DNA of 13,222 bases from a virus (lineage: Duplodnaviria; Heunggongvirae; Uroviricota; Caudoviricetes). The stretch spans positions 1-13,222 of the IMG/VR virus record IMGVR_UViG_2654588181_000002, one strand, 5' to 3'. The notes beneath the pieces are model-generated. The model had not been told where the DNA came from. It worked only from the letters and a program-made list of their open reading frames with translations, and ran no database searches. A program made the translations under genes and the position numbers. Shown one piece after another: positions 1-13,222 of the stretch (position 1 is its first letter; every line of letters starts with the position of its first letter).

Positions 1-315
1 GATAATGGTTCATGCTACCGGGCTAATGAAACACGGCAGTTTGCCCGGATGTTGGGGCTTGAACCGAAGAACACGGCGGTGCGGAGTCCGGAGAGTAACG
101 GCATAGCAGAGAGCTTCGTGAAAACGATAAAGCGTGACTACATCAGTATCATGCCTAAACCAGACGGGTTAACGGCAGCAAAGAACCTTGCAGAGGCGTT
201 CGAGCATTATAACGAATGGCATCCGCATAGTGCACTGGGTTATCGCTCGCCACGGGAATATCTGCGGCAGCAGGCCAGTAATGGGTTAAGTGATAACAGG
301 TGTCTGGAAATATAG
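1..315 (+). CDS. insD: IS2 OrfB/InsD-type transposase, C-terminal fragment (5' end outside window)
   Basis: Translation from position 1: [104 protein letters not shown]. Recognised from memory as the IS2 InsD C-terminus. The ORF track lists only the internal Met at 49. Confidence 0.8.
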
Positions 316-326
316 GGGCAAATCCA
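1..326 (+). mobile_element. IS2-like (IS3 family) insertion sequence, 3' portion only; the outer terminal inverted repeat appears to be missing
   Basis: Frame 1 is open from position 1 to TAG 313-315 and encodes the C-terminus of an IS3-family DDE transposase (...[17 protein letters not shown]...). After GGGCAAATCCA (316-326) the sequence becomes AT-rich and unrelated to the IS2 terminal repeat as I recall it (no ...TTAAGTGATA...GGGGGCCAGTCTA). Confidence 0.7.
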
Positions 327-443
327 TTTAGAGCTATATTCTAGAGTATATGAGATACTATAAAGTTGAAGGAGCTATCATTAGAAAAACCATATGCTGC
401 TATAATTAGATGTCTCGCTTTTCATCCAATAACGAATTTTCTC

Positions 444-851
444 TTATAGATTGCTCTCTGGTTTTTTCGGCCACTCTGTATTTTTTATATCAACACGCAT
501 CAATAGTGCGCGATATTTTTTCCATGCCAGTAACAGTTTCGTTTCATCATCTGTTGCCATATCTAAATCAACCGCATCCTGAAGCGGTGCTATTACATTC
601 GTTGCCTCTGCTATCAGTGCAGATTTCTTTTCATTATTTATTAAGGCTAATTGTTCTGGTGTTGGAGAAGGACGGTCAACAATGACAGGGTGACCATTCT
701 CACCACAGGTAATCATTTTTGTTACACTCTGCGAATTAATCAGTGTTTTCCACTCTGATTCCGAGATTTCCACTGCATCATCAGGAATATTGGTGCCGTG
801 AAATTCAGTCGAATAAAATCCGTTTGTCGATGCAGAATAAAAATATGACAT
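444..851 (-). CDS. phage tail fibre assembly protein (Tfa family chaperone)
   Basis: C-terminal region ...IAPLQDAVDLDMATDDETKLLLAWKKYRALLMRVDIKNTEWPKKPE is the characteristic Tfa C-terminal domain. Start placed at the ATG at 849-851 (MSYFYSASTNGFY...) rather than ORF-track 947, because the upstream extension overlaps the tail-fibre gene in another frame. The upstream gene stops at 856-858. Confidence 0.8.
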   Translation of the reverse strand: MSYFYSASTNGFYSTEFHGTNIPDDAVEISESEWKTLINSQSVTKMITCGENGHPVIVDRPSPTPEQLALINNEKKSALIAEATNVIAPLQDAVDLDMATDDETKLLLAWKKYRALLMRVDIKNTEWPKKPESNL

Positions 852-855
852 TTCG

Positions 856-1506
856 TTAATATCCCATTGCAATGTAATACGCATCAGCAGATGAACCATA
901 TCCTGAACCGGGCGACACTGTAATATCAAATCCAGTGTTATGGACATTTGTCGCCGATACAGTCGGCTGCCCTGACGCGCCAGTAACGTTCAATGTAACT
1001 GTGACAGCAAGGACTCTTGAGAATGTCATCGGGAACCTCATCCCGTATGTTGAAGATACATTAGGGGAGCCATTCAACTGACCGCACTGTAAAATTAATC
1101 CAGACGGAAATTTTTGCGCAGCAGCCGTTGCGGTATTACTTGACGCGAACAGGCTCATATCAGGTATCTGATTCGCCCCTGTACCTACATTCCTTTTAGC
1201 CGCTTCTCCCAAACCAAGGTTTTCGAGAGCCGTTTGCACAGTGCCATCCGATTTGATATCGCCAAACGGATTCTTGCGGCTTAACAACAGCGCACGAAGC
1301 GCGGTAAGCAGCTGGTCATGCCGCCCCTTCTCCAGGCTGGCACCGGATGCCTCCACCACGCTGCAAAGCTCCTCCTGCAACATGTCAAAGTAGTCATCAT
1401 CCAGATCGGTGGCAGGTGTGCCGGTCTGGGGGTTACCACGGGTAAAACCGTTCTTACCCGCGCCGAACTTATCCTTCTGCGCGGTTTTGGTGTCTATACG
1501 ATGCAT
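856..1506 (-). CDS. phage tail fibre protein (short receptor-binding type, Stf-like)
   Basis: 216 aa. N-terminus [55 protein letters not shown]... and a Gly/Ser/Thr-rich C-terminus resemble short side-tail-fibre proteins of E. coli defective prophages (memory-based). It is immediately followed by a Tfa gene, the canonical stf-tfa arrangement. Confidence 0.6.
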
Positions 1507-1808
1507 GGATTACTCCGGATACCCCCTAGTGAATCTCCTGCACCATCAAGATGAAGGAGATAGATATTACTTGAGTTACCTTTTTCACCTTTCCGGGTGA
1601 CTTTTTTTACCAGCCCGGAATCACAAAGGGCCGCAATATGATTCATCACAGAACGTTTGCTAATCTCGCACTGGTCAGCAATATGCTGGTAGCTGGGCCA
1701 GCACTCACCCTGATCGCTGGCATTATCAGCCAGCTTGATCAGAACCAGTTTTCGCAATGGATTACCCACTCGAATTTTCATCGCTTTAACCATCAGCTCC
1801 ATACTCAT
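1494..1808 (-). CDS. small winged-helix/HTH DNA-binding protein (phage replication-initiator N-terminal-like, possibly truncated)
   Basis: 104 aa. Motif ...[47 protein letters not shown]... looks like the HTH N-terminal domain of phage replisome-organiser proteins. ATGA start/stop overlap with the upstream gene (1805-1808). The 3' end overlaps the tail-fibre start by 13 nt. Confidence 0.55.
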
Positions 1809-2041
1809 GCTGCACCTCCGAGATGCTTCATGTTTTTTCCGGAGCGAAAGGCTATAAGCGGCATACTGACGCGGTAATTACGGCCCAGCGGTTCACAAAT
1901 CACCTTCTGACATTCACGGTCAACCAGGCTGACACGTAGAACATGCCCTGCTGGCGTGGTGTACCACTGCCCAACTGTGGGTGTTGATATTTTTTTACGC
2001 TGAAATAAACGGTAAATGTTGAGGAGCAACGGATTAAGCAT
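1805..2041 (-). CDS. hypothetical small protein (78 aa)
   Basis: ORF whose start overlaps the upstream stop (ATG 2039-2041, upstream TAA 2034-2036) and whose stop overlaps the next start (ATGA at 1805-1808), suggesting translational coupling within one operon. No family recognised. Confidence 0.4.
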   Translation of the reverse strand: MLNPLLLNIYRLFQRKKISTPTVGQWYTTPAGHVLRVSLVDRECQKVICEPLGRNYRVSMPLIAFRSGKNMKHLGGAA

Positions 2042-2870
2042 GACGATGCCCTCCGCTGATATTCAGGAGACGGTGAATATGAAAATTAGCCTTATCCGCC
2101 AGACGAATACGTTCAGCTTGCAAGTTAAGAAGGGTTTCTACCAGAACCTGATGTGCCTGCGGATCCGAAAGAGTTACCTTGCGCAGAGCACGTAGTGCAG
2201 CTGTTACATAACTGAGTTTATGTAAGTCTTCATCATTCAGACGAGTGAGGGCTGGGACAGTAGCCATGATGGCAGCCTCCTTGATCGGTGAAATACTTCC
2301 ACCACCGGAAACGCCAATTTCGCTGGTGGTGAACTGAACGGGGTTGGCGTAACCGGTGATCAAGGAAACCGGCGCATCTTTCGATGCCCCCGCCCAGCCC
2401 ACCATAACTTTGATGTGAGCAAATGCGGACGATAAAAAAGACGCTGGCGCGTCATATATCGCCTTGATCAATTCCAGGACGCCAATCCCGGCACCCGCTT
2501 TATAAGGTGCCTGAACAGTGTAACGTCCCGGAATGGCAGAATCAATGTGCTGGTGGTCCTTCACACTCAACAAAATCACGCCTGAATTTCCACAAAGGGC
2601 TAAAGCACTCATGCGGGTAGTCTTTGCGAAGATAGATAACGCGCTGTGTTTCTGGCTCCCAACGAATAACATGAACATAAAGTCCTCTTCCGTCACGAAA
2701 CCAGCGGTTAAGTTCCTGCACAACTCGCCCCCCACAGTCAGGTAAAGTTCTCTGTGGTTACTTACAGCCAGGAGATTTGGTAATCTGCATTCATGCCGTA
2801 ACAACAGGTGTTCAGCGACGCTGACCACCAGCTGTTGCGACAAACGGTTATTTGCCGTTAAACTGTTCAT
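2034..2870 (-). CDS. hypothetical protein (278 aa) in the lambdoid replication-gene position; function unknown
   Basis: Long ORF with ATGA overlap to the upstream CII-like gene (2867-2870). No Walker A/P-loop, no N-terminal HTH and no other motif I can assign. Confidence 0.6.
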   Translation of the reverse strand: MNSLTANNRLSQQLVVSVAEHLLLRHECRLPNLLAVSNHRELYLTVGGELCRNLTAGFVTEEDFMFMLFVGSQKHSALSIFAKTTRMSALALCGNSGVILLSVKDHQHIDSAIPGRYTVQAPYKAGAGIGVLELIKAIYDAPASFLSSAFAHIKVMVGWAGASKDAPVSLITGYANPVQFTTSEIGVSGGGSISPIKEAAIMATVPALTRLNDEDLHKLSYVTAALRALRKVTLSDPQAHQVLVETLLNLQAERIRLADKANFHIHRLLNISGGHRHA

Positions 2871-3436
2871 GCGTTAGTTTCTCCACAACCAGAAGCAATC
2901 GACGCCACGACGCCCGGAGCTGCACACTCGCGGGCGTCATTACTTTCTGAAATGCAAAAGATTTTGTAGACCAGTGCTGCATGCTCCTGCAGCTTCGAAA
3001 TTGAGAGATACAGCTCGTCGTTAATTGCTGTCTTCTCATGCGGTTCCACTACACCGTCTTCGATTGCTGAACGAATCTGTTTTGAATAACTGCCGATCTG
3101 TTCAATGACTTCCAGCAGACGCTGGTTAATATCGGCGTTGTCCACATCCTCGACGTCAGGAAGAGACACAAAGACGCCATTTGCAGACTGCGCCACAGCG
3201 TCAGCAATGAAGTGAGTTCCACCAGCACGTTGCAAAATCATTGCCCATCCCAGCGGGAAAATCTGATCGCCATCGGCACGAAGGCGGTTAAATAATGCGT
3301 TCTCTGTTACATCCAGCCAGTCAGCTGCTTCAGCGTAACCACCCGGCAACTTTGCGATAGTTTTTCTGACAGCTTTCACGTACCACTCAGGCTGTTTTTC
3401 TACTTTCCAGTGATGCTTACCCACGGTTAGCCTCAT
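2867..3436 (-). CDS. phage CII-like regulatory protein (YmfL/YdaT-like)
   Basis: 189 aa, immediately downstream of the Cro-like gene on the same strand, in the cII position of a lambdoid immunity region. Resembles the e14 YmfL / Rac YdaT group (memory-based). No obvious Shine-Dalgarno upstream of the ATG at 3434-3436. Confidence 0.6.
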   Translation of the reverse strand: MRLTVGKHHWKVEKQPEWYVKAVRKTIAKLPGGYAEAADWLDVTENALFNRLRADGDQIFPLGWAMILQRAGGTHFIADAVAQSANGVFVSLPDVEDVDNADINQRLLEVIEQIGSYSKQIRSAIEDGVVEPHEKTAINDELYLSISKLQEHAALVYKIFCISESNDARECAAPGVVASIASGCGETNA

Positions 3437-3467
3437 CGTTCTGTGGTTAAAAATTGAAAGTGTTCTG

Positions 3468-3668
3468 CTAATCTTTCGGATAGATATCCGGTCTTAAGTC
3501 AGATTTCGTAATTGCACCTGACGTGCATTGCTCAAGTTTTTTAGCCAGCACAAAACTGGCTTTTTTATAGCCATTGAAAACCAGCCGTAAGTAGCCAGGT
3601 GTTGAGCCAACTTTTCCGGCCAACTCGCCCTGCTGTTCTTTGGTTAAAGAGTCCCAATACGCTTTCAT
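3468..3668 (-). CDS. Cro-like HTH regulator (YdaS/CroE-like)
   Basis: 66-aa product MKAYWDSLTKEQQGELAGKVGSTPGYLRLVFNGYKKASFVLAKKLEQCTSGAITKSDLRPDIYPKD, divergent from the CI-like gene. GGAGG lies 10 nt upstream of the chosen ATG (3666-3668). The longer ORF-track version (to 3971) would overlap the repressor gene and is rejected. Confidence 0.7.
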   Translation of the reverse strand: MKAYWDSLTKEQQGELAGKVGSTPGYLRLVFNGYKKASFVLAKKLEQCTSGAITKSDLRPDIYPKD

Positions 3669-3670
3669 AC

Positions 3671-3758
3671 AATATGTACCTCCGGTGTACATATTACATG
3701 ATTGAAATGAACCTTCAAGATACTTGTACCTTAACGGTACAAGAGTTTTAATTTCGTT
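3671..3758. promoter_or_regulatory. divergent immunity-switch control region: two inverted-repeat operators plus candidate pR (minus) and pRM (plus) promoters
   Basis: Operator 1 is AATATGTAC-N7-GTACATATT (3671-3695, perfect 9-bp arms). Operator 2 is CTTGTACC-TTAAC-GGTACAAG (3723-3743, perfect 8-bp arms). Candidate pR on minus strand: -35 TTGAAG (3719..3714), 17-bp spacer, -10 TAATAT (3696..3691), overlapping operator 1. Candidate pRM on plus strand: -35 TTGTAC (3724-3729), 17-bp spacer, -10 TTTAAT (3747-3752), ending about 7 nt before the repressor ATG. Confidence 0.6.
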
Positions 3759-4433
3759 ATGAAAACAATCCATGACATCCGGCGGTCTAACGCCAGAAAA
3801 CTGAGAGATGGTGTTGGCGGGAATTCTTCCTTTGCCACTATGATTGATCGCGAGCCAACCCAGACCAGCAGGTTTATGGGAGATGGTGCTACTAAAAATA
3901 TCGGTGACAGCATGGCACGACACATCGAAAAATGTTTCGACCTGCCTGTCGGATGGCTCGATCAAGAACACCAGACAACGAACATCACAAAAAAACCTGA
4001 TGTTTCAATCACTAATAAACAAATCACATTAGTCCCTGTCATATCATGGGTACAGGCCGGAGCATGGAAAGAAGTTGGATATTCTGAGGTTGATTTGAGC
4101 ACAGCAGAAACGTATCCCTGCCCTGTACCCTGTGGGGAAATGACTTATATCTTGCGGGTGATAGGTGATTCAATGATTGATGAGTACCGCCCGGGAGACA
4201 TGATTTTTGTCGATCCTGAAGTACCTGCCTGCCACGGTGACGACGTTATTGCATTGATGCACGATACAGGTGAAACCACCTTCAAAAGGTTGATAGAAGA
4301 TGGGACACAGCGTTATCTCAAAGCGTTAAACCCAAACTGGCCTGAGCCTTACATTAAGATCAACGGTAATTGCTCTATAATTGGTACAGTGATTTTCTCA
4401 GGAAAACCAAGAAGATACAAAATCAAAGCCTAA
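3759..4433 (+). CDS. CI-like prophage repressor (HTH + LexA-like S24 autopeptidase domain; CohE-like)
   Basis: 224 aa with an N-terminal HTH region and a C-terminal S24-type domain (VIGDSM... and FKRL Ser/Lys dyad context). Divergent from the Cro-like gene, and no Shine-Dalgarno before the ATG, consistent with a leaderless pRM transcript. Confidence 0.9.
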   Translation: MKTIHDIRRSNARKLRDGVGGNSSFATMIDREPTQTSRFMGDGATKNIGDSMARHIEKCFDLPVGWLDQEHQTTNITKKPDVSITNKQITLVPVISWVQAGAWKEVGYSEVDLSTAETYPCPVPCGEMTYILRVIGDSMIDEYRPGDMIFVDPEVPACHGDDVIALMHDTGETTFKRLIEDGTQRYLKALNPNWPEPYIKINGNCSIIGTVIFSGKPRRYKIKA

Positions 4434-4444
4434 TCAATGTTTAT

Positions 4445-4468
4445 GAACCTGCTTCGGCAGGTTTTTTT
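4445..4468 (+). terminator. intrinsic terminator downstream of the repressor gene
   Basis: ACCTGC-TTCG-GCAGGT hairpin (4447-4462, UUCG tetraloop) followed by a run of seven T (4462-4468), 12 nt after the repressor stop. Confidence 0.75.
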
Positions 4469-4472
4469 ATAC

Positions 4473-4505
4473 TTGACAATGTACCTTTGAGATACATAAT
4501 GTACC
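4473..4505 (+). promoter_or_regulatory. candidate early-left promoter (pL-like) with repressor half-sites
   Basis: -35 TTGACA (4473-4478), 16-bp spacer, -10 CATAAT (4495-4500). The ATGTACC motif occurs twice (4480-4486 and 4499-5505 region, second copy at 4499-4505), sharing the GTAC core of the operators at 3671-3743. Confidence 0.6.
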
Positions 4506-4582
4506 CAAGCGAAACAACGAACAGGCAGGACGCCCACGAAGTAGCCGCCTGGGGCATATGAAGTCCAGGATGATTCGTTAGC

Positions 4583-4608
4583 AACAAAAAAGCGCCTACA
4601 GGACGCTT
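4583..4608 (-). terminator. candidate intrinsic terminator on the minus strand, downstream of the 4845-5279 gene
   Basis: Minus strand reads AAGCGTC-CTGTA-GGCGCTT followed by TTTTGTTGC (plus coordinates 4590-4608 for the hairpin, A-run 4586-4591). It lies about 240 nt beyond the minus-strand gene's stop and inside the 5' leader of the plus-strand 68-aa gene. Confidence 0.45.
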
Positions 4609-4666
4609 AGCTCTTTAACAATCTGGTCCCCATCAACAAGTAACTGATAACTTGAGGAGATGTGAA

Positions 4667-4873
4667 ATGCACAAAACAGAACCCAAAATCGTCGCGCCTG
4701 GCTACACAGATGAGGAAATTTATGAGTGGATGACAAAGAAGCTGGCAGCTATAAACCAGCTTCGTGAAGTGCTGTCTTATCGACAGGAAACAATAGACTC
4801 CTTAAAAAAACTGGATCAGGAAATCACGGTTTTATCACAGGATGTTACTTTAGATATTGTGCAGACAAATTAG
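4667..4873 (+). CDS. hypothetical small acidic, predicted coiled-coil protein (68 aa), first gene after pL
   Basis: ATG at 4667 preceded by GAGGAG (4655-4660); the ORF-track 4652 start would be a TTG. Product MHKTEPKIVAPGYTDEEIYEWMTKKLAAINQLREVLSYRQETIDSLKKLDQEITVLSQDVTLDIVQTN. Not N-like (not Arg-rich). The 3' end overlaps the convergent minus-strand gene by 29 nt. Confidence 0.5.
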   Translation: MHKTEPKIVAPGYTDEEIYEWMTKKLAAINQLREVLSYRQETIDSLKKLDQEITVLSQDVTLDIVQTN

Positions 4874-5279
4874 GATCCCATTCATTTTCGTCAAAATCAT
4901 CAAAGTGATGAATTTGTGATCTCCAGTCTCGATAATCTAAAAATTTCTGGGCGGTTACGCTTATTTTATCAAGTGTGAGTTCATCCTGAATTGAAAGAAG
5001 AAGTTCATCAAATTTCATCTCATTAATCTGTTTTGGCATCCAGTGATGCTTCATCAGAATAAGGTGAACCAGAGCCTTTTTCCCATTCAACTGATTATAG
5101 GGAGTGCCGAATTTCTTCCGGTGCTCATGTAAGACAAGGTCCAAAAGAGTAAGTAATGTTGCCCTTGATTCAACTTTGCTTATTTCGACTGATGACACTA
5201 CCCCACTGATTTCAATGCCCCGATACTTTCCAACATTTTCACAGTGGGATTTGTACAGCGTATAGATATTACCGGACAT
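4845..5279 (-). CDS. hypothetical protein (144 aa), AT-rich antisense 'moron' gene; function unknown
   Basis: Clean 144-codon ORF opposite to all neighbouring early-left genes, visibly more AT-rich than its flanks, with an AGGA-like RBS upstream of the ATG (5277-5279) and its own candidate terminator. No family recognised. Confidence 0.6.
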   Translation of the reverse strand: MSGNIYTLYKSHCENVGKYRGIEISGVVSSVEISKVESRATLLTLLDLVLHEHRKKFGTPYNQLNGKKALVHLILMKHHWMPKQINEMKFDELLLSIQDELTLDKISVTAQKFLDYRDWRSQIHHFDDFDENEWDPNLSAQYLK

Positions 5280-5294
5280 TTCTTTTCCTTTTGC

Positions 5295-5343
5295 GTTGTT
5301 GGGGATAACCAGATTAACCGAATCCTTGTTGTTGGGGAATAAC
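5295..5343. repeat. two direct copies of GTTGTTGGGGA(A)TAAC, 33 bp apart, just upstream of the 4845-5279 gene
   Basis: 5295-5309 GTTGTTGGGGATAAC and 5328-5343 GTTGTTGGGGAATAAC. Position fits a regulator binding site or promoter element for the minus-strand gene. Confidence 0.4.
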
Positions 5344-5605
5344 TAGGTCCACCTCGCCTGATGTGGCTAAAAGCAGGCACATAACAGCTAAGTATTTTCA
5401 ACCAGAGAGAATCCTTAGCGTTGTGGTGAATGCGGCTCAGCGCACGCGGGTTAAGGTTGAGGCTGACAGTCGACCTTCTGTGGATACCCACCCGCCTGGT
5501 GTGCAACCTTCGCCAGGCACCGGGAGGCACCCGGCACCACAACTTTATGCTGTGTGTAGTCTTGGCGGTACCAGCTTGTACCCTTGCTTCCGGCTGGTAC
5601 CGTCC

Positions 5606-5704
5606 TTTTTACAAAACAGAGAAGAGCATCACCGGACGACGGGCTCATAACCCAATCCATCCGGGCGGCAGTCACCGCAGGTGTTCTTCTCTGTTTTGTG
5701 GAGA
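5606..5704. other. long imperfect palindrome / stem-loop within a GC-rich non-coding block
   Basis: Perfect 14-bp inverted repeat ACAAAACAGAGAAG (5611-5624) / CTTCTCTGTTTTGT (5686-5699), extendable with wobbles to about 20 bp, enclosing a ~49-nt GC-rich loop. No flanking U-run on either strand, so not a classical terminator. Confidence 0.4.
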
Positions 5705-5747
5705 AACTAACCGACCTTGCAGGGTCGATATGATGAGGAGCAGCAAA

Positions 5748-6110
5748 ATGGCTAGCGAACGCAGTACTGATGTGCAGGCATTTATCGGGGAGCTGGACGG
5801 CGGCGTATTTGAAACCAAAATCGGCGCAGTTCTCAGTGAAGTCGCTTCCGGTGTGATGAACACGAAAACCAAAGGTAAGGTCTCGCTCAACCTAGAAATC
5901 GAACCGTTTGATGAGAACCGAGTGAAAATCAAACACAAACTCTCATATGTTCGCCCGACTAACCGCGGGAAAATTTCCGAAGAAGACACCACCGAAACGC
6001 CGATGTATGTCAATCGCGGTGGTCGCCTGACTATTCTGCAGGAAGACCAGGGACAGTTGCTGACTCTTGCCGGTGAACCTGACGGAAAACTCCGCGCAGC
6101 AGGTCGTTAA
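5748..6110 (+). CDS. YfdP-like prophage protein (120 aa), function unknown
   Basis: Start at ATG 5748 (MASERSTDVQAFIGELDGG...) preceded by GAGGAG (5735-5740). The ORF-track extension back to 5430 translates to Arg/Cys/His-rich sequence typical of GC-rich non-coding DNA and is rejected. First gene of a block recalled as the CPS-53 yfdPQRST-like cluster. Confidence 0.65.
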   Translation: MASERSTDVQAFIGELDGGVFETKIGAVLSEVASGVMNTKTKGKVSLNLEIEPFDENRVKIKHKLSYVRPTNRGKISEEDTTETPMYVNRGGRLTILQEDQGQLLTLAGEPDGKLRAAGR

Positions 6111-6175
6111 TATCGTTTTTAATTAACTGATTATTTATCTCATCACTGAATATCTTTATATAGTGAGGACTTATT

Positions 6176-7000
6176 ATGTCTCAGAACTTAGACGCAACCG
6201 CAATTAATCAAATCCATGCCCTTATTTCTGCTCAGGGTGTTAATGAAATTATCAGTAAGATTGGTGCCGATGCTGTGGCATTGCCTGAGAATTTCCGCAT
6301 TCATGATCTGGAAAAATTTAATTTAAATCGCTTCCGTTTCCGTGGTGCGCTTTCCACTGCCAGCATCGATGATTTTACCCGTTATTCTAAAGATCTTGCA
6401 GATGAAGGCACCCGCTGCTTTATCGATGCTGATAATATGCGTGCCGTCAGTGTGCTTAACCTAGGTACTATTGATGAACCAGGTCACGCAGATAACACCG
6501 CCACACTCAAACTGAAAAAGACAGCACCGTTCTCTGCTCTGTTGTCTGTTAACGGCGAGCGTAACTCCCAGAAGTCACTAGCAGAATGGATTGAAGACTG
6601 GGCCGACTATCTTGTGGGCTTTGATGCTAATGGTGACGCTATTCAGGCAACAAAAGCGGCTGCGGCTGTCCGTAAAATCACGATTGAAGCAAACCAGACC
6701 GCTGATTTTGAAGATAATGACTTCAGCGGCAAACGCTCCCTGATGGAGTCTGTCGAAGCGAAGACCAAAGACATTATGCCAGTGGCATTTGAATTTAAAT
6801 GCGTTCCGTTTGAAGGTCTGAAAGAACGTCCGTTTAAATTACGCCTCAGTATTATCACTGGCGATCGTCCTGTACTGGTTCTGCGCATTATTCAGCTGGA
6901 GGCGGTGCAGGAAGAAATGGCTAACGAATTTCGTGATCTGCTTGTTGAGAAATTCAAGGACAGCAAAGTAGAAACCTTTATTGGTACTTTCACCGCCTGA
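6176..7000 (+). CDS. YfdQ-like prophage protein (DUF2303-type), 274 aa
   Basis: ATG 6176 with GAGGA (6165-6169) upstream. Product [30 protein letters not shown]... recalled as YfdQ-family. Confidence 0.75.
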
Positions 7001-7012
7001 TTTCATTACTGC

Positions 7013-7034
7013 AAATGCCCCTGCGGGGGCATTT
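7013..7034 (+). other. perfect 9-bp hairpin between the yfdQ-like and yfdR-like genes
   Basis: AAATGCCCC-TGCG-GGGGCATTT (stem 7013-7021 / 7026-7034). The only T residues are inside the stem, so it is a weak terminator at best; possibly an mRNA stability or processing element. Confidence 0.35.
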
Positions 7035-7127
7035 ATGGAAACGTAATTTACTCAATAATCGCCGGATGGTGAGGGATTCTTTTTACCAGAATTCAGCGCG
7101 GTGCAGCGCATATACGTGGAGAACAAA

Positions 7128-7664
7128 ATGTCATTTATTAAAACTTTTTCCGGGAAGCATTTTTATTATGACAGGATAAATAAAGACGACATCGATATTA
7201 ACGATATCGCGGTTTCCCTTTCAAATATCTGTCGCTTTGCCGGTCATCTTTCGCACTTCTACAGCGTCGCCCAACATGCGGTTCTTTGCAGCCAGCTGGT
7301 GCCGCAGGAATTTGCTTTTGAAGCGTTAATGCATGATGCAACAGAAGCGTATTGCCAGGACATTCCCGCACCACTGAAACGCCTTCTTCCTGACTATAAA
7401 CAAATGGAAGAAAAAATAGACGCCGTAATCCGTGAGAAATACGGGTTACCCCCAGTTATGAGTACGCCCGTGAAATATGCCGATCTCATCATGCTGGCAA
7501 CCGAACGCCGCGATCTCGGGCTTGATGATGGCTCTTTCTGGCCTGTACTGGAAGGTATCCCGGCAACAGAGATGTTCAACGTGATTCCACTGGCACCGGG
7601 CCATGCCTACGGGATGTTTATGGAACGCTTTAACGAGTTATCGGAGTTACGCAAATGCGCATGA
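7128..7664 (+). CDS. HD-domain phosphohydrolase (YfdR-like)
   Basis: 178 aa. H...HD metal-binding signature (...AGHLSHFYSVAQHAV... and ...ALMHDATEAY...). ATG 7128 preceded by GGAG (7117-7120); the ORF-track GTG at 7101 is rejected. Stop overlaps the next gene's start. Confidence 0.85.
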   Translation: MSFIKTFSGKHFYYDRINKDDIDINDIAVSLSNICRFAGHLSHFYSVAQHAVLCSQLVPQEFAFEALMHDATEAYCQDIPAPLKRLLPDYKQMEEKIDAVIREKYGLPPVMSTPVKYADLIMLATERRDLGLDDGSFWPVLEGIPATEMFNVIPLAPGHAYGMFMERFNELSELRKCA

Positions 7665-8017
7665 ATGTTTTCGAAATGGAAGGGTTTCTTCGTGGGAGAT
7701 GTGTACCGCGAGATCTGAAAGTAAATGAAACAGATGCTGAATACCTGGTGCGTAAATTCGATGCGCTTGAAGCTAAATGTGCAGCACAGGAAAACAAAGT
7801 AATACCAGTGTCAACTGAACTGCCACCAGCAAATGAAAGTGTTTTGTTATTCGATGCTAACGGAGAAGGCTGGCTAATTGGCTGGCGTTCTCTCTGGTAC
7901 ACCTGGGGACAAAAAGAAACCGGAGAATGGCAGTGGACATTTCAGGTCGGGGACCTTGAAAACGTCAATATCACTCACTGGGCAGTAATGCCAAAAGCAC
8001 CGGAGGCTGGAGCATAA
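7655..8017 (+). CDS. DUF551-like phage protein (YfdS-like)
   Basis: 120 aa, Trp-rich C-terminal half (...GWLIGWRSLWYTWGQKETGEWQW...) typical of DUF551. Start overlaps the previous stop (7655-7664); the stop overlaps the next start (8017). Confidence 0.7.
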   Translation: MRMNVFEMEGFLRGRCVPRDLKVNETDAEYLVRKFDALEAKCAAQENKVIPVSTELPPANESVLLFDANGEGWLIGWRSLWYTWGQKETGEWQWTFQVGDLENVNITHWAVMPKAPEAGA

Positions 8018-8322
8018 TGACCACTTTTACCGACAAAGAACTGATTAAAGAAATTAAAGAGCGTATCAGCAGCCTTGACGTGCGAGACGATATTGAGCGC
8101 CGTGCTTATGAAATCGCACTCCTATATCTGGAAGTAGAACCAGATGAACGCGAAGCTTATGAATTATTCATGGAAAAGCGTTTCGGTGACTTAGTAGATC
8201 GTCGGAGAGCAAAAAACGGCAATAACGAATACATGGCATGGGATATGACTCTCGGTTGGATCGTCTGGCAGCAACGAGCTGGTATCCATTTTTCAACAAT
8301 GTCACAGCAAGAGGTGAAATAA
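8017..8322 (+). CDS. hypothetical phage protein (YfdT-like), 101 aa
   Basis: Translationally coupled at both ends (ATG within ATAATG at 8017; TAATG at 8320-8324). Assigned as the last gene of the yfdQRST-like cluster by position and size only. Confidence 0.55.
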   Translation: MTTFTDKELIKEIKERISSLDVRDDIERRAYEIALLYLEVEPDEREAYELFMEKRFGDLVDRRRAKNGNNEYMAWDMTLGWIVWQQRAGIHFSTMSQQEVK

Positions 8323-8672
8323 TGGAGCCATACAGCCTCACACTCGATGAGGCCTGTCATTTTCTCAAGATATCCAGACCGACTGCCATTAACTGGATAC
8401 GCACAGGGCGTCTTCAGGCAACACGCAAAGATCCCACTAAGAATAAATCTCCTTACCTCACAACACGACAAGCCTGCATTGCGGCTCTTCAGTCTCCGCT
8501 GCATACTGTCCAGGTGAGCGCGGGTGATGGCATAACAGAGGAAAGAAAATGTCACTCTTCCGCAGAGGTGAAATATGGTACGCCAGTTTCACATTGCCGA
8601 ACGGTAAAAGATTTAAACAGTCTCTTGGAACAAAGGACAAAAGGCAGGCGACAGAACTCCATGACAAGCTAA
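8322..8672 (+). CDS. AlpA/Xis-type excisionase / DNA-binding regulator
   Basis: N-terminus [38 protein letters not shown]... is the AlpA-family HTH. ATG 8322 with GAGG (8311-8314) upstream. The ORF runs 116 codons and its last 124 nt overlap the integrase start in another frame, so the true C-terminus is uncertain. Confidence 0.7.
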
Positions 8673-9712
8673 AGGCTGAAGCATGGCGGGTCAGCAAACT
8701 TGGTGAAATACCTGATATAACGTTCGAGGAAGCGTGTGTCAGGTGGCTTGAAGAGAAAGCACATAAAAAATCACTGGACGATGACAAAAGCCGGATCGGA
8801 TTCTGGCTTCAACATTTCGCAGGAATGCAACTAAGAGACATTACTGAATCAAAAATTTATTCAGCAATGCAGAAAATGACGAACCGGCGTCATGAGGAAA
8901 ACTGGAAACTCAGGGCAGAAGCATGCAGAAAAAAAGGGAAACCTGTTCCAGAATACACGCCAAAACCAGCGTCCGTTGCAACGAAGGCTACGCATCTTTC
9001 ATTTATAAAGGCCCTACTAAGAGCCGCAGAGCGTGAATGGAAAATGCTGGATAAGGCACCAATTATTAAAGTGCCTCAACCAAAGAATAAACGGATCCGC
9101 TGGCTGGAGCCCCATGAAGCACAAAGGCTGATTGATGAATGTCCGGAGCCATTAAAGTCTGTTGTTGAATTTGCACTGGCAACAGGCTTAAGACGCTCGA
9201 ACATCATCAACCTTGAATGGCAACAAATAGATATGCAGCGCCGGGTGGCATGGATAAACCCGGAAGAGAGTAAATCAAACCGCGCAATTGGCGTTGCGCT
9301 GAATGATACTGCATGTCGCGTATTGAAAAAACAAATCGGGAATCATCACCGTTGGGTATTTGTGTACAAGGAAAGCTGTACCAAACCAGACGGAACGAAA
9401 GCGCCAACAGTAAGGAAGATGCGGTATGACGCAAACACAGCCTGGAAAGCGGCGCTGAGACGGGCTGGTATTGATGATTTCAGATTTCACGACTTGAGAC
9501 ACACCTGGGCAAGTTGGCTGGTTCAAGCCGGAGTCCCGTTGTCAGTGTTACAGGAAATGGGAGGCTGGGAGTCTATCGAAATGGTTCGTCGATATGCTCA
9601 CCTTGCACCTAATCACCTTACCGAACACGCACGGCAAATAGACTCGATCCTGAACCCATCGGTCCCAAATTTGTCCCAGTCAAAAAATAAGGAAGGTACT
9701 AATGATGTGTAA
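8549..9712 (+). CDS. tyrosine recombinase, phage integrase (e14 IntE-like)
   Basis: 387 aa. N-terminus [34 protein letters not shown] and C-terminal catalytic region ...[42 protein letters not shown] (R..H..R..Y). Stops 14 nt before the 3' end of the tRNA. Confidence 0.95.
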
Positions 9713-9725
9713 CTTATTGATTTTA

Positions 9726-9801
9726 ATGGTGCCGATAATAGGAGTCGAACCTACGACCTTCGCATTACGAATGCGCTGCTCTACCAACTGAGCTATATCG
9801 G
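9726..9801 (-). tRNA. thrW: tRNA-Thr (anticodon CGU)
   Basis: Minus strand reads GCCGATATAGCTCAGTTGGTAGAGCAGCGCATTCGTAATGCGAAGGTCGTAGGTTCGACTCCTATTATCGGCACCA: 7-bp acceptor stem, anticodon loop UUCGUAA, T-loop GGTTCGA, encoded CCA. Sits between proA and the integrase, as expected for a thrW-integrated island. Confidence 0.97.
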
Positions 9802-9854
9802 CCCTGAAAGGACATGTTCACGAACGTGAATCACGGTGGACAAGGTTAAAACTA

Positions 9855-9911
9855 ACCGGGCGATGCGTCAATGGCCTTGTGAATCAAATGGCTACTTTTG
9901 CATCACCCGGT
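9855..9911. terminator. hairpin between proA and thrW; candidate proBA terminator (T-runs on both sides)
   Basis: 12-bp arms ACCGGGCGATGC (9855-9866) / GCATCACCCGGT (9900-9911), with one wobble on the minus strand, flanked by TTTTATTT on plus (9911-9918) and TAGTTTTAA on minus. The 33-nt loop is long for a simple terminator. Confidence 0.4.
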
Positions 9912-9916
9912 TTTAT

Positions 9917-11170
9917 TTACGCACGAATGGTGTAATCACCAATGCCGATCCACTTGTAAGTGGTCAGTGCTTCCAGCCCCATTGGGCCACGCGCGTGGAG
10001 TTTTTGTGTGCTTACCGCCACTTCCGCACCCAGACCAAACTGGCCGCCGTCGGTAAAACGCGTAGAGGCGTTAACGTAAACAGCGGACGAATCCACTTCG
10101 TTAACAAAACGCTGGGCGTTGCGCATATCGCGGGTCAGGATCGCATCGGAGTGTTGTGTGCCGTGTTCACGAATATGGGCGATGGCATCGTCAAGATCGC
10201 TGACGATTTTGACGTTCAAATCTAATGACAGAAACTCATCGTCATACTCTTCGGCTTTAACAGCAACCACCTTCGCAGGGCCTGCCTGCAACTGCGCCAG
10301 TGCAGCTGCATCTGCGTGTAATGTCACGCCGCTTTCCGCCATTTGTTTGCTTAATGCGGGCAGGAAGCTATCGGCGATGTTTTTATTCACCAGCAACGTT
10401 TCAACCGTATTACATGTGCTCGGACGCTGAGTTTTCGCGTTGACGATCACTTTTAATGCTTCAGCGATCTCTACACTTTCATCAACGTAAATATGGCATA
10501 CGCCTATACCACCTGTGATCACCGGGATTGTCGACTGTTCACGGCACAGTTTATGCAAACCAGCGCCACCACGCGGGATCAGCATGTCGATGTATTTATC
10601 CATACGCAGCATTTCACTGACCAGCGCACGGTCAGGATTATCAATCGCCTGCACGGCACCCGCCGGTAAGCCGCAGGATTTCAGGGCGTCCTGAATCACC
10701 GCCACCGTTGCAGCGTTAGTGCGACACGTTTCTTTGCCACCGCGCAGGATCACCGCATTACCGGTTTTCAGGCACAGCGAAGCGACATCAACCGTCACGT
10801 TCGGGCGCGCTTCATAAATCACGCCAATAACCCCCAGCGGTACGCGACGACGCTCAAGACGCAGGCCGCTGTCCAGTACGCTGCCATCGATTACCTGCCC
10901 CACCGGATCGGCGAGGTTACACACCTGGCGCACATCATCGGCAATGCCTTTCAGCCGTGCGGGCGTCAGTGCCAGACGGTCAAGCATCGCTTCGCCAAGG
11001 CCATTGGCACGCGCGTCAGCAACATCCTGGGCGTTAGCGTTGAGGATGATTTCGCTTTGTGCTTCCAGTTCATCGGCGATTTTTTCCAGCACGCGATTTT
11101 TTTCGCGGCTGGAGAGTTGCGCTAATTTATACGAGGCTTGCTTCGCGGCAATGCCCATTTGTTCCAGCAT
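9917..11170 (-). CDS. proA: gamma-glutamyl phosphate reductase
   Basis: 417-aa product [58 protein letters not shown]..., recognised as E. coli ProA. GGAG sits 7 nt upstream of the ATG, 11 nt after the proB stop. Confidence 0.98.
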
Positions 11171-11181
11171 CAGCCTGCTCC

Positions 11182-12285
11182 TTAACGGGTAATCATGTCA
11201 TCACGGTGAACGGCAACCGGGCCGTATTCATATCCCAGTATTGCATCAATTTCTTGCGAGTGGTGCCCGGCAATACGGCGTAATGCATCGCTGTTGTAAC
11301 GACTGACGCCGTGGGCGATATCGCGACCTTCGAGGTTGCAAATGCGGATGACTTCACCACGCGAGAAATTGCCAGTCACGCTTTTAATGCCTTTCGGCAA
11401 CAGGGAGCTGCCGCGTTCAAGAATGGCGGCAGTTGCCCCTTCATCTACCGTGATTTCACCCGCCGGCGGCGCACCGAAAATCCAGCGTTTACGGTTTTCA
11501 AGCGGAGTCGCCTGGGCATGGAACAGCGTACCGACGGAAATGCCTTCCATCACATCACCAATAACGCCCGGCTTGCTGCCCGCGGCAATAATGGTGTCGA
11601 TACCCGCACGGCAAGCCACGTCAGCGGCCTGCAATTTGGTACTCATGCCGCCAGTTCCGAGGCCTGAAACGCTGTCACCGGCAATCGCGCGCAGTGCGTC
11701 ATCAATGCCGTAAACATCTTTAATCAGTTCTGCCTGCGGATTGCTGCGCGGGTCAGCGGTATACAAACCTTTTTGATCGGTCAGCAGCAACAGTTTATCG
11801 GCACCCGCCAGAATCGCCGCCAGCGCAGAAAGGTTATCGTTATCGCCGACTTTAATCTCTGCCGTAGCGACAGCATCGTTCTCATTGATTACCGGAACGA
11901 TATTGTTATCGAGCAACGCACGCAGGGTGTCGCGGGCGTTCAGGAAGCGTTCACGGTCTTCCATATCAGCACGGGTCAGCAGCATTTGCCCGACGTGAAT
12001 GCCATAAATCGAAAACAGCTGTTCCCACAGTTGAATCAGTCGACTCTGCCCTACCGCTGCCAGCAGTTGTTTCGAGGCGATAGTCGCTGGCAGTTCCGGG
12101 TAACCCAGGTGCTCACGTCCGGCGGCGATCGCGCCCGACGTCACAATAACAATCCGATGCCCGGCGGCATGTAACTGCGCGCACTGGCGAACAAGTTCAA
12201 CGATATGGGCACGGTTCAGACGGCGCGATCCGCCTGTTAGCACACTGGTGCCGAGTTTTACCACCAGCGTCTGGCTGTCACTCAT
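11182..12285 (-). CDS. proB: glutamate 5-kinase
   Basis: Product [66 protein letters not shown]..., recognised as E. coli ProB. Start set at ATG 12283-12285 (367 aa) rather than the ORF-track 12372, whose 29-codon extension is not part of ProB. Confidence 0.97.
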
Positions 12286-12473
12286 GATTCTCTGCCATTC
12301 AATTTTAGGAAAAATGATATCAAACGAACGTTTTAGCAGGACTGTCGTCGGTTGCCAACCATCTGCGAGCAAAGCATGGCGTTTTGTTGCGCGGGATCAG
12401 CAAGCCTAGCGGCAGTTGTTTACGCTTTTATTACAGATTTAATAAATTACCACATTTTAAGAATATTATTAAT

Positions 12474-12491
12474 CTGTAATATATCTTTAAC
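12474..12491 (+). promoter_or_regulatory. Pho box (PhoB binding site) of the phoE promoter
   Basis: CTGTAAT-ATAT-CTTTAAC, direct 7-bp repeats with a 4-bp spacer, about 80 bp upstream of the phoE ATG. A second Pho-box-like element in reverse orientation lies near 12431-12445 (TTACAGATTTAATAA). Confidence 0.5.
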
Positions 12492-12572
12492 AATCTCAGG
12501 TTAAAAACTTTCCTGTTTTCAACGGGGCTCTCCCGCTGAATATTCGCGCGTTAATTAAAATCAGGAATGAAA

Positions 12573-12627
12573 ATGAAAAAGAGCACTCTGGCATTAGTGG
12601 TGATGGGCATTGTGGCATCTGCATCTG
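12573..12627 (+). pseudogene. phoE: phoE 5' fragment (signal-peptide codons 1-18), interrupted by IS1
   Basis: ATG 12573 encodes MKKSTLALVVMGIVASAS, the PhoE porin signal peptide, then runs directly into the IS1 left end at 12628. Divergent from proB as in E. coli. Confidence 0.85.
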
Positions 12628-12682
12628 GGTGATGCTGCCAACTTACTGATTTAGTGTATGATGGTGTTTTTGAGGTGCTCCA

Positions 12683-12958
12683 GTGGCTTCTGTTTCTATC
12701 AGCTGTCCCTCCTGTTCAGCTACTGACGGGGTGGTGCGTAACGGCAAAAGCACCGCCGGACATCAGCGCTATCTCTGCTCTCACTGCCGTAAAACATGGC
12801 AACTGCAGTTCACTTACACCGCTTCTCAACCCGGTACGCACCAGAAAATCATTGATATGGCCATGAATGGCGTTGGATGCCGGGCAACCGCACGCATTAT
12901 GGGCGTTAGCCTCAACACGATTTTACGCCACTTAAAAAACTCAGGCCGCAGTCGGTAA
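12683..12958 (+). CDS. insA: IS1 InsA (transposition inhibitor / N-terminal part of the InsAB' transposase)
   Basis: 91-aa product [91 protein letters not shown] with a zinc-finger-like CxxC...CxxC N-terminus. Confidence 0.95.
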
Positions 12959-13222
12959 CCTCGCGCATACAGCCGGGCAGTGACGTCATCGTCTGCGCGG
13001 AAATGGACGAACAGTGGGGATACGTCGGGGCTAAATCGCGCCAGCGCTGGCTGTTTTACGCGTATGACAGGCTCCGGAAGACGGTTGTTGCGCACGTATT
13101 CGGTGAACGCACTATGGCGACGCTGGGGCGTCTTATGAGCCTGCTGTCACCCTTTGACGTGGTGATATGGATGACGGATGGCTGGCCGCTGTATGAATCC
13201 CGCCTGAAGGGAAAGCTGCACG
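12934..13222 (+). CDS. insB: IS1 insB reading frame (partial; expressed as InsAB' by -1 frameshift at the A6C slip site)
   Basis: A6C motif TTAAAAAAC at 12932-12940. The -1 frame after it reads [96 protein letters not shown] to the window end. In this copy the insB frame has a TAG at 12907-12909, upstream of the slip site. Confidence 0.8.

Follow-up and report, generated by a model that had tools for sequence, protein, structure and literature searches.

Where does the prophage that lies between thrW and this IS2 copy end, and by what events did it lose the genes between its early region and its tail fibre? The window, by which we mean the whole stretch of DNA analysed here (13,222 bp), opens inside an IS2 element. 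A sequence-only reading of it proposed two rearrangements, an internal deletion and a second, IS2-associated deletion. Our analysis bears out the first and refutes the second. The element is very likely a cryptic serotype-converting prophage of the SfI/SfV type (Mu-like tail, lambdoid early region), situated at thrW beside proA, that underwent one deletion and into which a complete IS2 subsequently transposed.

The window was identified by exact look-up of a 104-aa ORF as the entire contig FNIS01000058.1 of draft assembly GCA_900103855.1, whose source strain has the BioSample number SAMN05216485. The host label Shigella sonnei is that of the NCBI database record for the proteins of this assembly and has no other source. 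The GC content of the window is 48.2%. Positions 1–9772 contain most of the defective prophage, and proA and proB lie beyond thrW. The features are as follows, L018 being a locus on a second contig of the assembly, FNIS01000022.1, and L001 a locus of an E. coli genome.

1–326, plus strand: right-hand 326 bp of IS2 (IS2 positions 1006–1331); the left cut is the contig end only
1–315, plus strand: 3' part of insD/orfB (Pfam rve_3), stop codon TAG at 313–315
286–326: right inverted repeat (IRR) of IS2, complete, 41 bp, 40/41 match to the IRR of K-12 IS2A
327–331: TTTAG, right copy of the 5-bp IS2 target-site duplication; left copy at L018 11638–11642
327–443: AT-rich gtrI–tfa intergenic spacer, tfa side of IS2, 117 bp, 30.8% GC
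444–947, minus strand: tail fibre assembly gene tfa (SfV orf22 equivalent), 167 aa, Caudo_TAP E = 6e-27
856–1506, minus strand: short tail fibre gene, full-length (SfV orf21 equivalent), 216 aa, Gp53-like_C
1494–1808, minus strand: truncated replication gene orf39', 104 aa, HTH_36/DnaD_N
1510–1521, minus strand: last 12 nt (3 codons and stop) of the baseplate gene orf20/ymfQ (Mu gp48-like), transferred from L001 ymfQ 10186–10770
1520–1521: deletion joint, a TA dinucleotide common to both parents (2-bp microhomology)
1805–2041, minus strand: orf38, first listed gene of the retained early rightward operon (operon span 1805–3668)
2034–2870, minus strand: orf37, Ash-family, same operon
2867–3424, minus strand: orf36/YmfL, CII-like, same operon
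3468–3668, minus strand: cro, same operon
3759–4433, plus strand: cI repressor, LexA/S24-type, 224 aa, Peptidase_S24 E = 1.5e-26 (SfV cI, 675 nt)
4667–8322: early leftward region, with a 68-aa ORF, an ECs1072-family gene (4845–5279, minus strand) and homologues of yfdP, yfdQ, yfdR, yfdS and yfdT (plus strand), based on gene calls and the annotation of loci L004 and L021
8238–8672, plus strand: xis, from gene calls and SfV comparison
8549–9712, plus strand: tyrosine integrase gene int, 387 aa, from gene calls and SfV comparison
9727–9802, minus strand: thrW, tRNA-Thr(CGT), found by ARAGORN; its 3' 46 nt (9727–9772) are the att core on the attR side

No head, tail-shaft, terminase or lysis genes were found in the element, the rest of which is colinear with the SfV early genes from orf38 to int. 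The ORFs and the SfV colinearity agree with the earlier observation that such genes are missing from the interval between the early region and the left edge. In length the short fibre gene equals SfV orf21 and its counterparts in intact E. coli relatives. The 167 aa given for tfa are those of the longest ORF, other gene calls starting at 884 or 899; SfV orf22 is 504 nt long. As first described, tfa is followed by an AT-rich spacer and then by IS2. The spacer had been put at about 115 bp and measures 117 bp. In L001, and in the Logan contig L007 that is described below, it runs on into the gtr side without a break.

At each end the window stops inside a multicopy IS element. The left one is IS2, and the right one (12628–13222) is an IS1 inserted 54 nt into phoE. 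Multicopy IS elements are the usual break points of short-read assemblies, and their presence at both contig ends indicates that the assembly broke there. The apparent end of the prophage at a "broken" IS2 is only the end of a draft contig and no biological breakpoint.

To characterize the IS2 copy, IS2A (1,331 bp) from the annotated E. coli K-12 record was used as the reference. Window positions 1–326 align without gaps to IS2A 1006–1331 with 96.9% identity, up to and including the terminal base of the element. The sequence-only reading had correctly placed the 3' end of the transposase gene at 1–315 and the point at which homology ceases, 11 bp past the stop codon, and had concluded that the outer end and the terminal inverted repeat were missing. 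The reference IS2 likewise ends 11 bp past its stop codon. IS2 has imperfect inverted repeats of 41 and 42 bp (PMC3299598). Since the stop codon of the transposase gene falls inside the 41-bp right repeat, a sequence that stops 11 bp after it is the normal end of a complete IS2. The repeat is present in the window, reads ...GGGGCAAATCCA at its end, and finishes on the last IS2 base at 326; a complete right end, placed by the reading at 316–443, is what it had itself named as evidence against its model.

The remainder of the prophage was found on FNIS01000022.1 (79,690 bp), which was located through an exact 506-aa Gtr protein recorded from the same assembly. The order at the end of this contig is ecpD, ecpE, ykgJ, yagU, paoABCD, a LysR pseudogene, an att core, gtrA, gtrB and the 506-aa gene, after which come a 121-bp spacer and IS2 bases 1–278. 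The product of the 506-aa gene shares 99.6% identity with GtrI of phage SfI. GtrA, GtrB and GtrI are encoded at L018 8719–11521, next to att and at the opposite end of the element from int and xis. The published 46-bp att core of SfI, SfII, SfV and SfX (PMC3636060) has one exact match in the window, inside thrW, which agrees with the thrW integration proposed at the outset. It also has one exact match in L018 (8472–8517), in the same orientation, between the LysR pseudogene and gtrA. This is the second att site that the sequence-only reading had suggested seeking beyond the window. The prophage does not end at IS2 but goes on for 3.2 kb past it to the second core. The core-to-core length is 13,948 bp, one IS2 included, and the element order is attL-gtrA-gtrB-gtrI-tfa-short fibre-orf39'-orf38-orf37-orf36-cro-cI-early-left genes-xis-int-attR/thrW.

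The left end of IS2 is also complete. Its inverted repeat (IRL; L018 11643–11684 on FNIS01000022.1, outside the window) matches K-12 at 42/42 positions. Ungapped comparison of IRL with IRR gives 15/45, the two repeats differing by one indel; a gapped alignment and the K-12 termini were used. On FNIS01000022.1 the junction reads ...CCCTCATTTAG and then IRL, with IS2 starting TAGACTGGCCCCC. In the window, IRR is followed by TTTAGAGC (in the longer form, ...GGGGCAAATCCA then TTTAGAGCTAT). As a control, IS2A of K-12 was found to have ATTAC on both flanks. The empty site, with a single TTTAG, reads CCCTCATTTAGAGC (also given as CATTTAGAGC; junction context ...CCCTCATTTAGAGCTAT) and is carried by Logan contig SRR27723771_161 (L007, identical with L019). 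This contig is 100% identical to the window over 8,034 bp (325–8358) and to L018 over 3,155 bp, and beyond tfa it runs on to the 506-aa gene and gtrB, no IS2 intervening. The same TTTAG on both sides, together with the empty site, shows that IS2 entered by simple insertion, duplicated 5 bp of target and removed nothing. Its target was the non-coding spacer that separates gtrI from tfa, two convergent genes. A contig of SRR4218895 ends 28 bp into IS2 at this site.

Of the 1,331-bp element, in which orfA and orfB are joined by a frameshift, two parts were assembled, 1–278 (orfA N-terminus, HTH_Tnp_1) and 1006–1331 (orfB C-terminus, rve_3), and the central 727 bp are unassembled through repeat collapse. 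Mismatches to K-12 IS2A number 10/326 at the right end and 12/278 at the left end (~3–4% divergence). The matching duplication and the empty site suggest that the two contigs are linked through a single 1,331-bp IS2. The IS2/tfa junction had no exact match in a collection with one genome for each species, the source strain not among them, and it is absent from complete E. coli RefSeq genomes.

It is improbable that a simple IS2 insertion was followed by IS2–IS2 recombination, an inversion or translocation separating gtrABI-attL from tfa-...-int-attR. IS-mediated inversions are common in Shigella and this genome is IS-rich, as the IS1 in phoE at the other contig end illustrates. A later inversion would keep both junction sequences, and because the assembly breaks in IS2 the adjacency of gtrI and tfa is not read directly. 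Nothing argues positively for such an event, however; a single insertion is the most economical explanation, and both flanks are 100% identical to one contiguous contig with the empty site. The idea that an IS2-associated deletion carried off the IS2 terminus and whatever of the prophage lay beyond it has very little left in its favour. It follows naturally from the window alone, where homology halts 11 bp past the stop codon and no prophage lies to the left. Against it stand the complete IRR, which ends where the reference ends, and the recovery from the same assembly of gtrI-gtrB-gtrA, the attL core and an IS2 left end bearing the same TTTAG; the empty site, moreover, exists. Simple insertion of a complete IS2 therefore remains the preferred reading.

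The internal deletion was examined by comparison with genomes that retain one or other side of it. E. coli genomes match either window 325–1521 (tfa, fibre gene and ymfQ 3' end; L001) or 1520–12627 (early region to proB; L004), and in a three-way alignment of the window, L001/L005 and L004 the parent switches at the TA at 1520–1521. The joint is spanned by 0/5,426 complete E. coli RefSeq genomes, which were used as parental references only. Window position 1520 corresponds to SfV base 28593, within orf39 (replication protein, 28305–29123), and position 1521 to SfV base 16656, 12 nt short of the orf20 end. The contiguous loss in prophage order is 25,136 bp in SfV coordinates and 25,193 bp relative to the intact thrW prophage of E. 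coli UPEC-245U. The proposal that a deletion fused the early region to the fibre module is thus confirmed, and the comparison with intact thrW phages recommended in the sequence-only reading allowed the deleted segment to be mapped on both SfV and UPEC-245U.

The Logan contig SRR27723771_161 has the same deletion joint as the window and lacks the IS2. Because the joint occurs in a sample without IS2, the deletion is real rather than an artefact of assembly, and is older than the IS2 insertion. That the joint is an assembly chimera, the strain really carrying an intact prophage, can be dismissed almost entirely: tfa and fibre sequences are repeated among prophages, with several copies in many E. 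coli genomes, and can mislead assemblers, but this joint sits in unique sequence (orf39 / ymfQ 3' end) rather than in the repeated tfa, recurs, flanked by 8 kb of sequence that is 100% identical, in a Logan assembly made independently from another run, and yields a 104-aa fusion protein for which exact look-up found an exact match in 3 contigs.

The deletion accounts for the gene arrangement at the joint. orf39' consists of codons 1–96 of a 272-aa protein, 8 foreign codons (IRSNPCIV) and a stop codon. Its residues 1–96 are those of SfV orf39 except for one substitution (D63 for E), after which the two diverge; full-length orf39 is present in SfV and UPEC-245U. The fibre ORF overlaps this HTH ORF by 13 nt (856–1506 versus 1494–1808), as had been reported from the sequence. 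The overlap stands, but the HTH gene is not the intact early gene it was taken for, being an orf39 stump of 96/272 codons with the 8 foreign codons attached. The deletion created the overlap incidentally, reading continuing over the joint until a stop codon occurs by chance. Of the late region upstream of the fibre gene, only the final 12 nt of orf20/ymfQ are left. A designed mini-element (satellite or tailocin) was considered and ruled out, as both deletion end-points cut within genes. E. coli YZ_2_2 has an independent deletion of the same type, in which an orf39 stump is fused to a baseplate J fragment.

The UPEC-245U prophage has all of the missing modules. Its counterpart of the lost segment contains PerC-like, LexA-like, RusA, KilA-N, DUF968 and DUF1133 genes; holins, endolysin, Rz1 and an HNH endonuclease; terminase, portal, protease and capsid genes; and connector, sheath, tube, tape measure and baseplate genes. 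A single illegitimate-recombination event at the 2-bp TA microhomology deleted ~25.1 kb contiguous in prophage order. The lost span begins at orf39 codon 97, takes in dam, rusA, late control, lysis, cos, terminase, head, sheath/tube, tape measure and baseplate, and stops 12 nt short of the orf20/ymfQ end. Later, a complete IS2 transposed into the gtrI–tfa spacer, duplicating TTTAG and deleting nothing. The biological weight of these events is small, and their order is fixed, with the deletion first and IS2 second. The practical lesson is that where a repeat marks a window edge, the break may be the end of a draft contig and not a biological breakpoint.

The gene content suggests what the remnant can still do. 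With orf39 cut it presumably cannot replicate, and it should likewise be unable to lyse the host or package DNA. Full-length cI, cro, int, xis and gtrABI and both att cores are retained. The remnant may still confer repressor immunity, glucosylate a suitable O antigen by means of the gtr genes, and excise. The O antigen of S. sonnei itself is not known as a substrate of GtrI. Such remnants may plausibly persist because the lethal lytic functions are gone. The locus is a clean example of a microhomology-mediated deletion that strips all lethal phage functions at once while sparing the immunity, integration and O-antigen-modification genes.

The fibre gene and tfa now lie directly downstream of, and co-oriented with, the early rightward operon (cro-orf36-orf37-orf38-orf39'), and the fibre start codon overlaps the orf39' stop region. 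We regard it as highly doubtful, if conceivable from this arrangement, that the remnant could express the fibre/chaperone pair on SOS induction, the products being donated to co-resident Mu-tail-type prophages or blocking receptors. If this were true, the independent deletions in K-12 CPS-53 and E. coli YZ_2_2 could reflect selection that keeps the fibre-tfa-gtr end. A promoter/terminator scan of 300–4500 returned 5 promoter-like sites versus 7.2 in shuffled sequences, hence no excess that would serve fibre and tfa.

The tail fibre module was also inspected for signs of an invertible segment. No serine invertase/resolvase domain was found in the ORFs of 1–4433 or among the gene calls for the rest of the window, and the remnant has no second fibre/tfa set. 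The search for crossover sites in 300–2100 gave only one 15-nt inverted pair at 93% and one 14-nt palindrome. In this lineage there is neither an invertase nor a convincing pair of inverted crossover sites, in keeping with the initial view that an invertible fibre segment is not supported. The intact thrW relative in UPEC-245U carries pinE and an inverted second fibre/tfa set. Unlike the e14-type Pin system, the tfa gene of the remnant adjoins the gtr cassette and not pin.

In Shigella and E. coli, IS insertions and defective prophages that carry gtr genes at tRNA loci are textbook material. Nothing in the remnant departs from known kinds, and its element type is already known. The closest phages are SfV and SfIV, to which 84–91% of window 327–9800 aligns with 97–99% identity. 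The early suggestion of an e14-like relationship is upheld, the element being related to e14 and SfV. With e14 the ymfQ-short fibre-tfa module and the ymfK/ymfT/ymfL early genes are homologous, judged by the RefSeq names on relatives. An e14 integrated at icd, suggested by a 417-aa ORF and the ymf names, was ruled out because the ORF is proA and the tRNA gene is thrW. The IS2 copy resembles IS2A of K-12 (IS3 family) in its termini, its orfA/orfB fragments and its 5-bp target duplication.

SfV, SfIV and SfI of S. flexneri integrate at thrW, have a Mu-like tail and carry gtrABX by attP, and the remnant has their gene order. The order common to SfV and the remnant is orf39-orf38-orf37-orf36-cro-cI...xis-int-att-gtrA-gtrB-gtrX-tfa-fibre. 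At both its ends the remnant carries a copy of the 46-bp att core, with exactly the sequence found in SfI, SfII, SfV and SfX. Compared with SfV-type phages, the remnant lacks 25.1 kb, from the 3' two-thirds of orf39 through the baseplate gene orf20, and has an IS2 between gtrI and tfa. Its virion, lysis and replication modules are incomplete, which makes it a defective derivative and not a functional temperate phage. On the attL side its chromosomal flank is yagP'/paoD, which is E. coli-like, whereas the corresponding flank in S. flexneri was reported as yaiC (PMC3306764).

Two known cryptic prophages are of the same kind. According to the literature, the gtrI cluster of S. flexneri serotype 1 strains lies in a cryptic prophage at proA (PMC4924310), and in this respect the remnant is alike, with gtrI in a defective prophage at thrW-proA. 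It differs from the S. flexneri gtrI prophage in its host label, here S. sonnei, and in its E. coli-like attL flank. CPS-53 (KpLE1) of K-12 keeps int, gtrA/B/S (yfdGHI), tfa (yfdK), the fibre gene (yfdL), an orf39-like stump (yfdO), yfdP-yfdT and xis (torI), and has no head, tail, lysis or packaging genes. It differs from the remnant in its integration site (argW, not thrW), in having no IS2 and no immunity region, and in its deletion end-points; its fibre gene is a pseudogene, and it retains yfdN and the methyltransferase gene yfdM.

E. coli YZ_2_2 carries a deletion of the same kind as that in the window, and the two arose independently. An orf39-like HTH gene in YZ_2_2 is truncated at about codon 41, where it adjoins a baseplate J fragment, and the remnant keeps ymfQ, the fibre gene and tfa. 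Two att cores (3680–3725 and 19076–19121), a second integrase and an IS3 also lie in this locus (L002). The features described here are as follows.

L002 (E. coli YZ_2_2, NZ_CM146015.1), 11034–11157: deletion of the same kind
Window, 4580–5348: segment with no SfV alignment, a gap between BLAST pieces
Window, 12574–13222: phoE interrupted by IS1
L018 (contig FNIS01000022.1, same assembly as the window), 10001–11521: gtrA-gtrB-gtrI
L005 (E. coli UPEC-245U), 11368–13144: pinE region at the position of the gtr cassette

The assembly reaches approximately 300 bp into IS2 from either side. Both sequenced ends are 3–4% divergent from K-12 IS2A, with 10/326 mismatches in the right end (window 1–326) and 12/278 in the left end (L018 11643–11920). 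This copy may be a divergent variant relative to the other IS2 copies of the genome.

The segment lacking SfV alignment contains a 68-aa ORF and, on the opposite strand, an ECs1072-family gene, and is 99.7% identical to the UPEC-245U prophage. Lying between cI and yfdP, it resembles a 'moron'-like mosaic replacement. At the right contig end, IS1 is inserted 54 nt into phoE, with its left end (GGTGATGCTGCC) at 12628. With the gene interrupted in this way and the contig terminating inside IS1, phoE is probably inactivated in the source strain.

gtrA-gtrB-gtrI is present in a genome labelled Shigella sonnei. GtrI of L018 is 99.6% identical to GtrI of S. flexneri phage SfI. Because the known substrate of GtrI is the O-antigen backbone of S. 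flexneri, the cassette may be functionless in this host, or the species label may be worth checking. The attL-side flank in L018 is the E. coli-like yagP'/paoD, whereas yaiC is the flank reported for S. flexneri (PMC3306764).

Where the gtr cassette would sit, the intact thrW prophage of UPEC-245U has pinE together with a second, inverted fibre/tfa set, as well as an AraC regulator gene and a GIY-YIG gene, but it is otherwise nearly identical to the window prophage. The tfa-distal region is thus an exchangeable module within this phage group.
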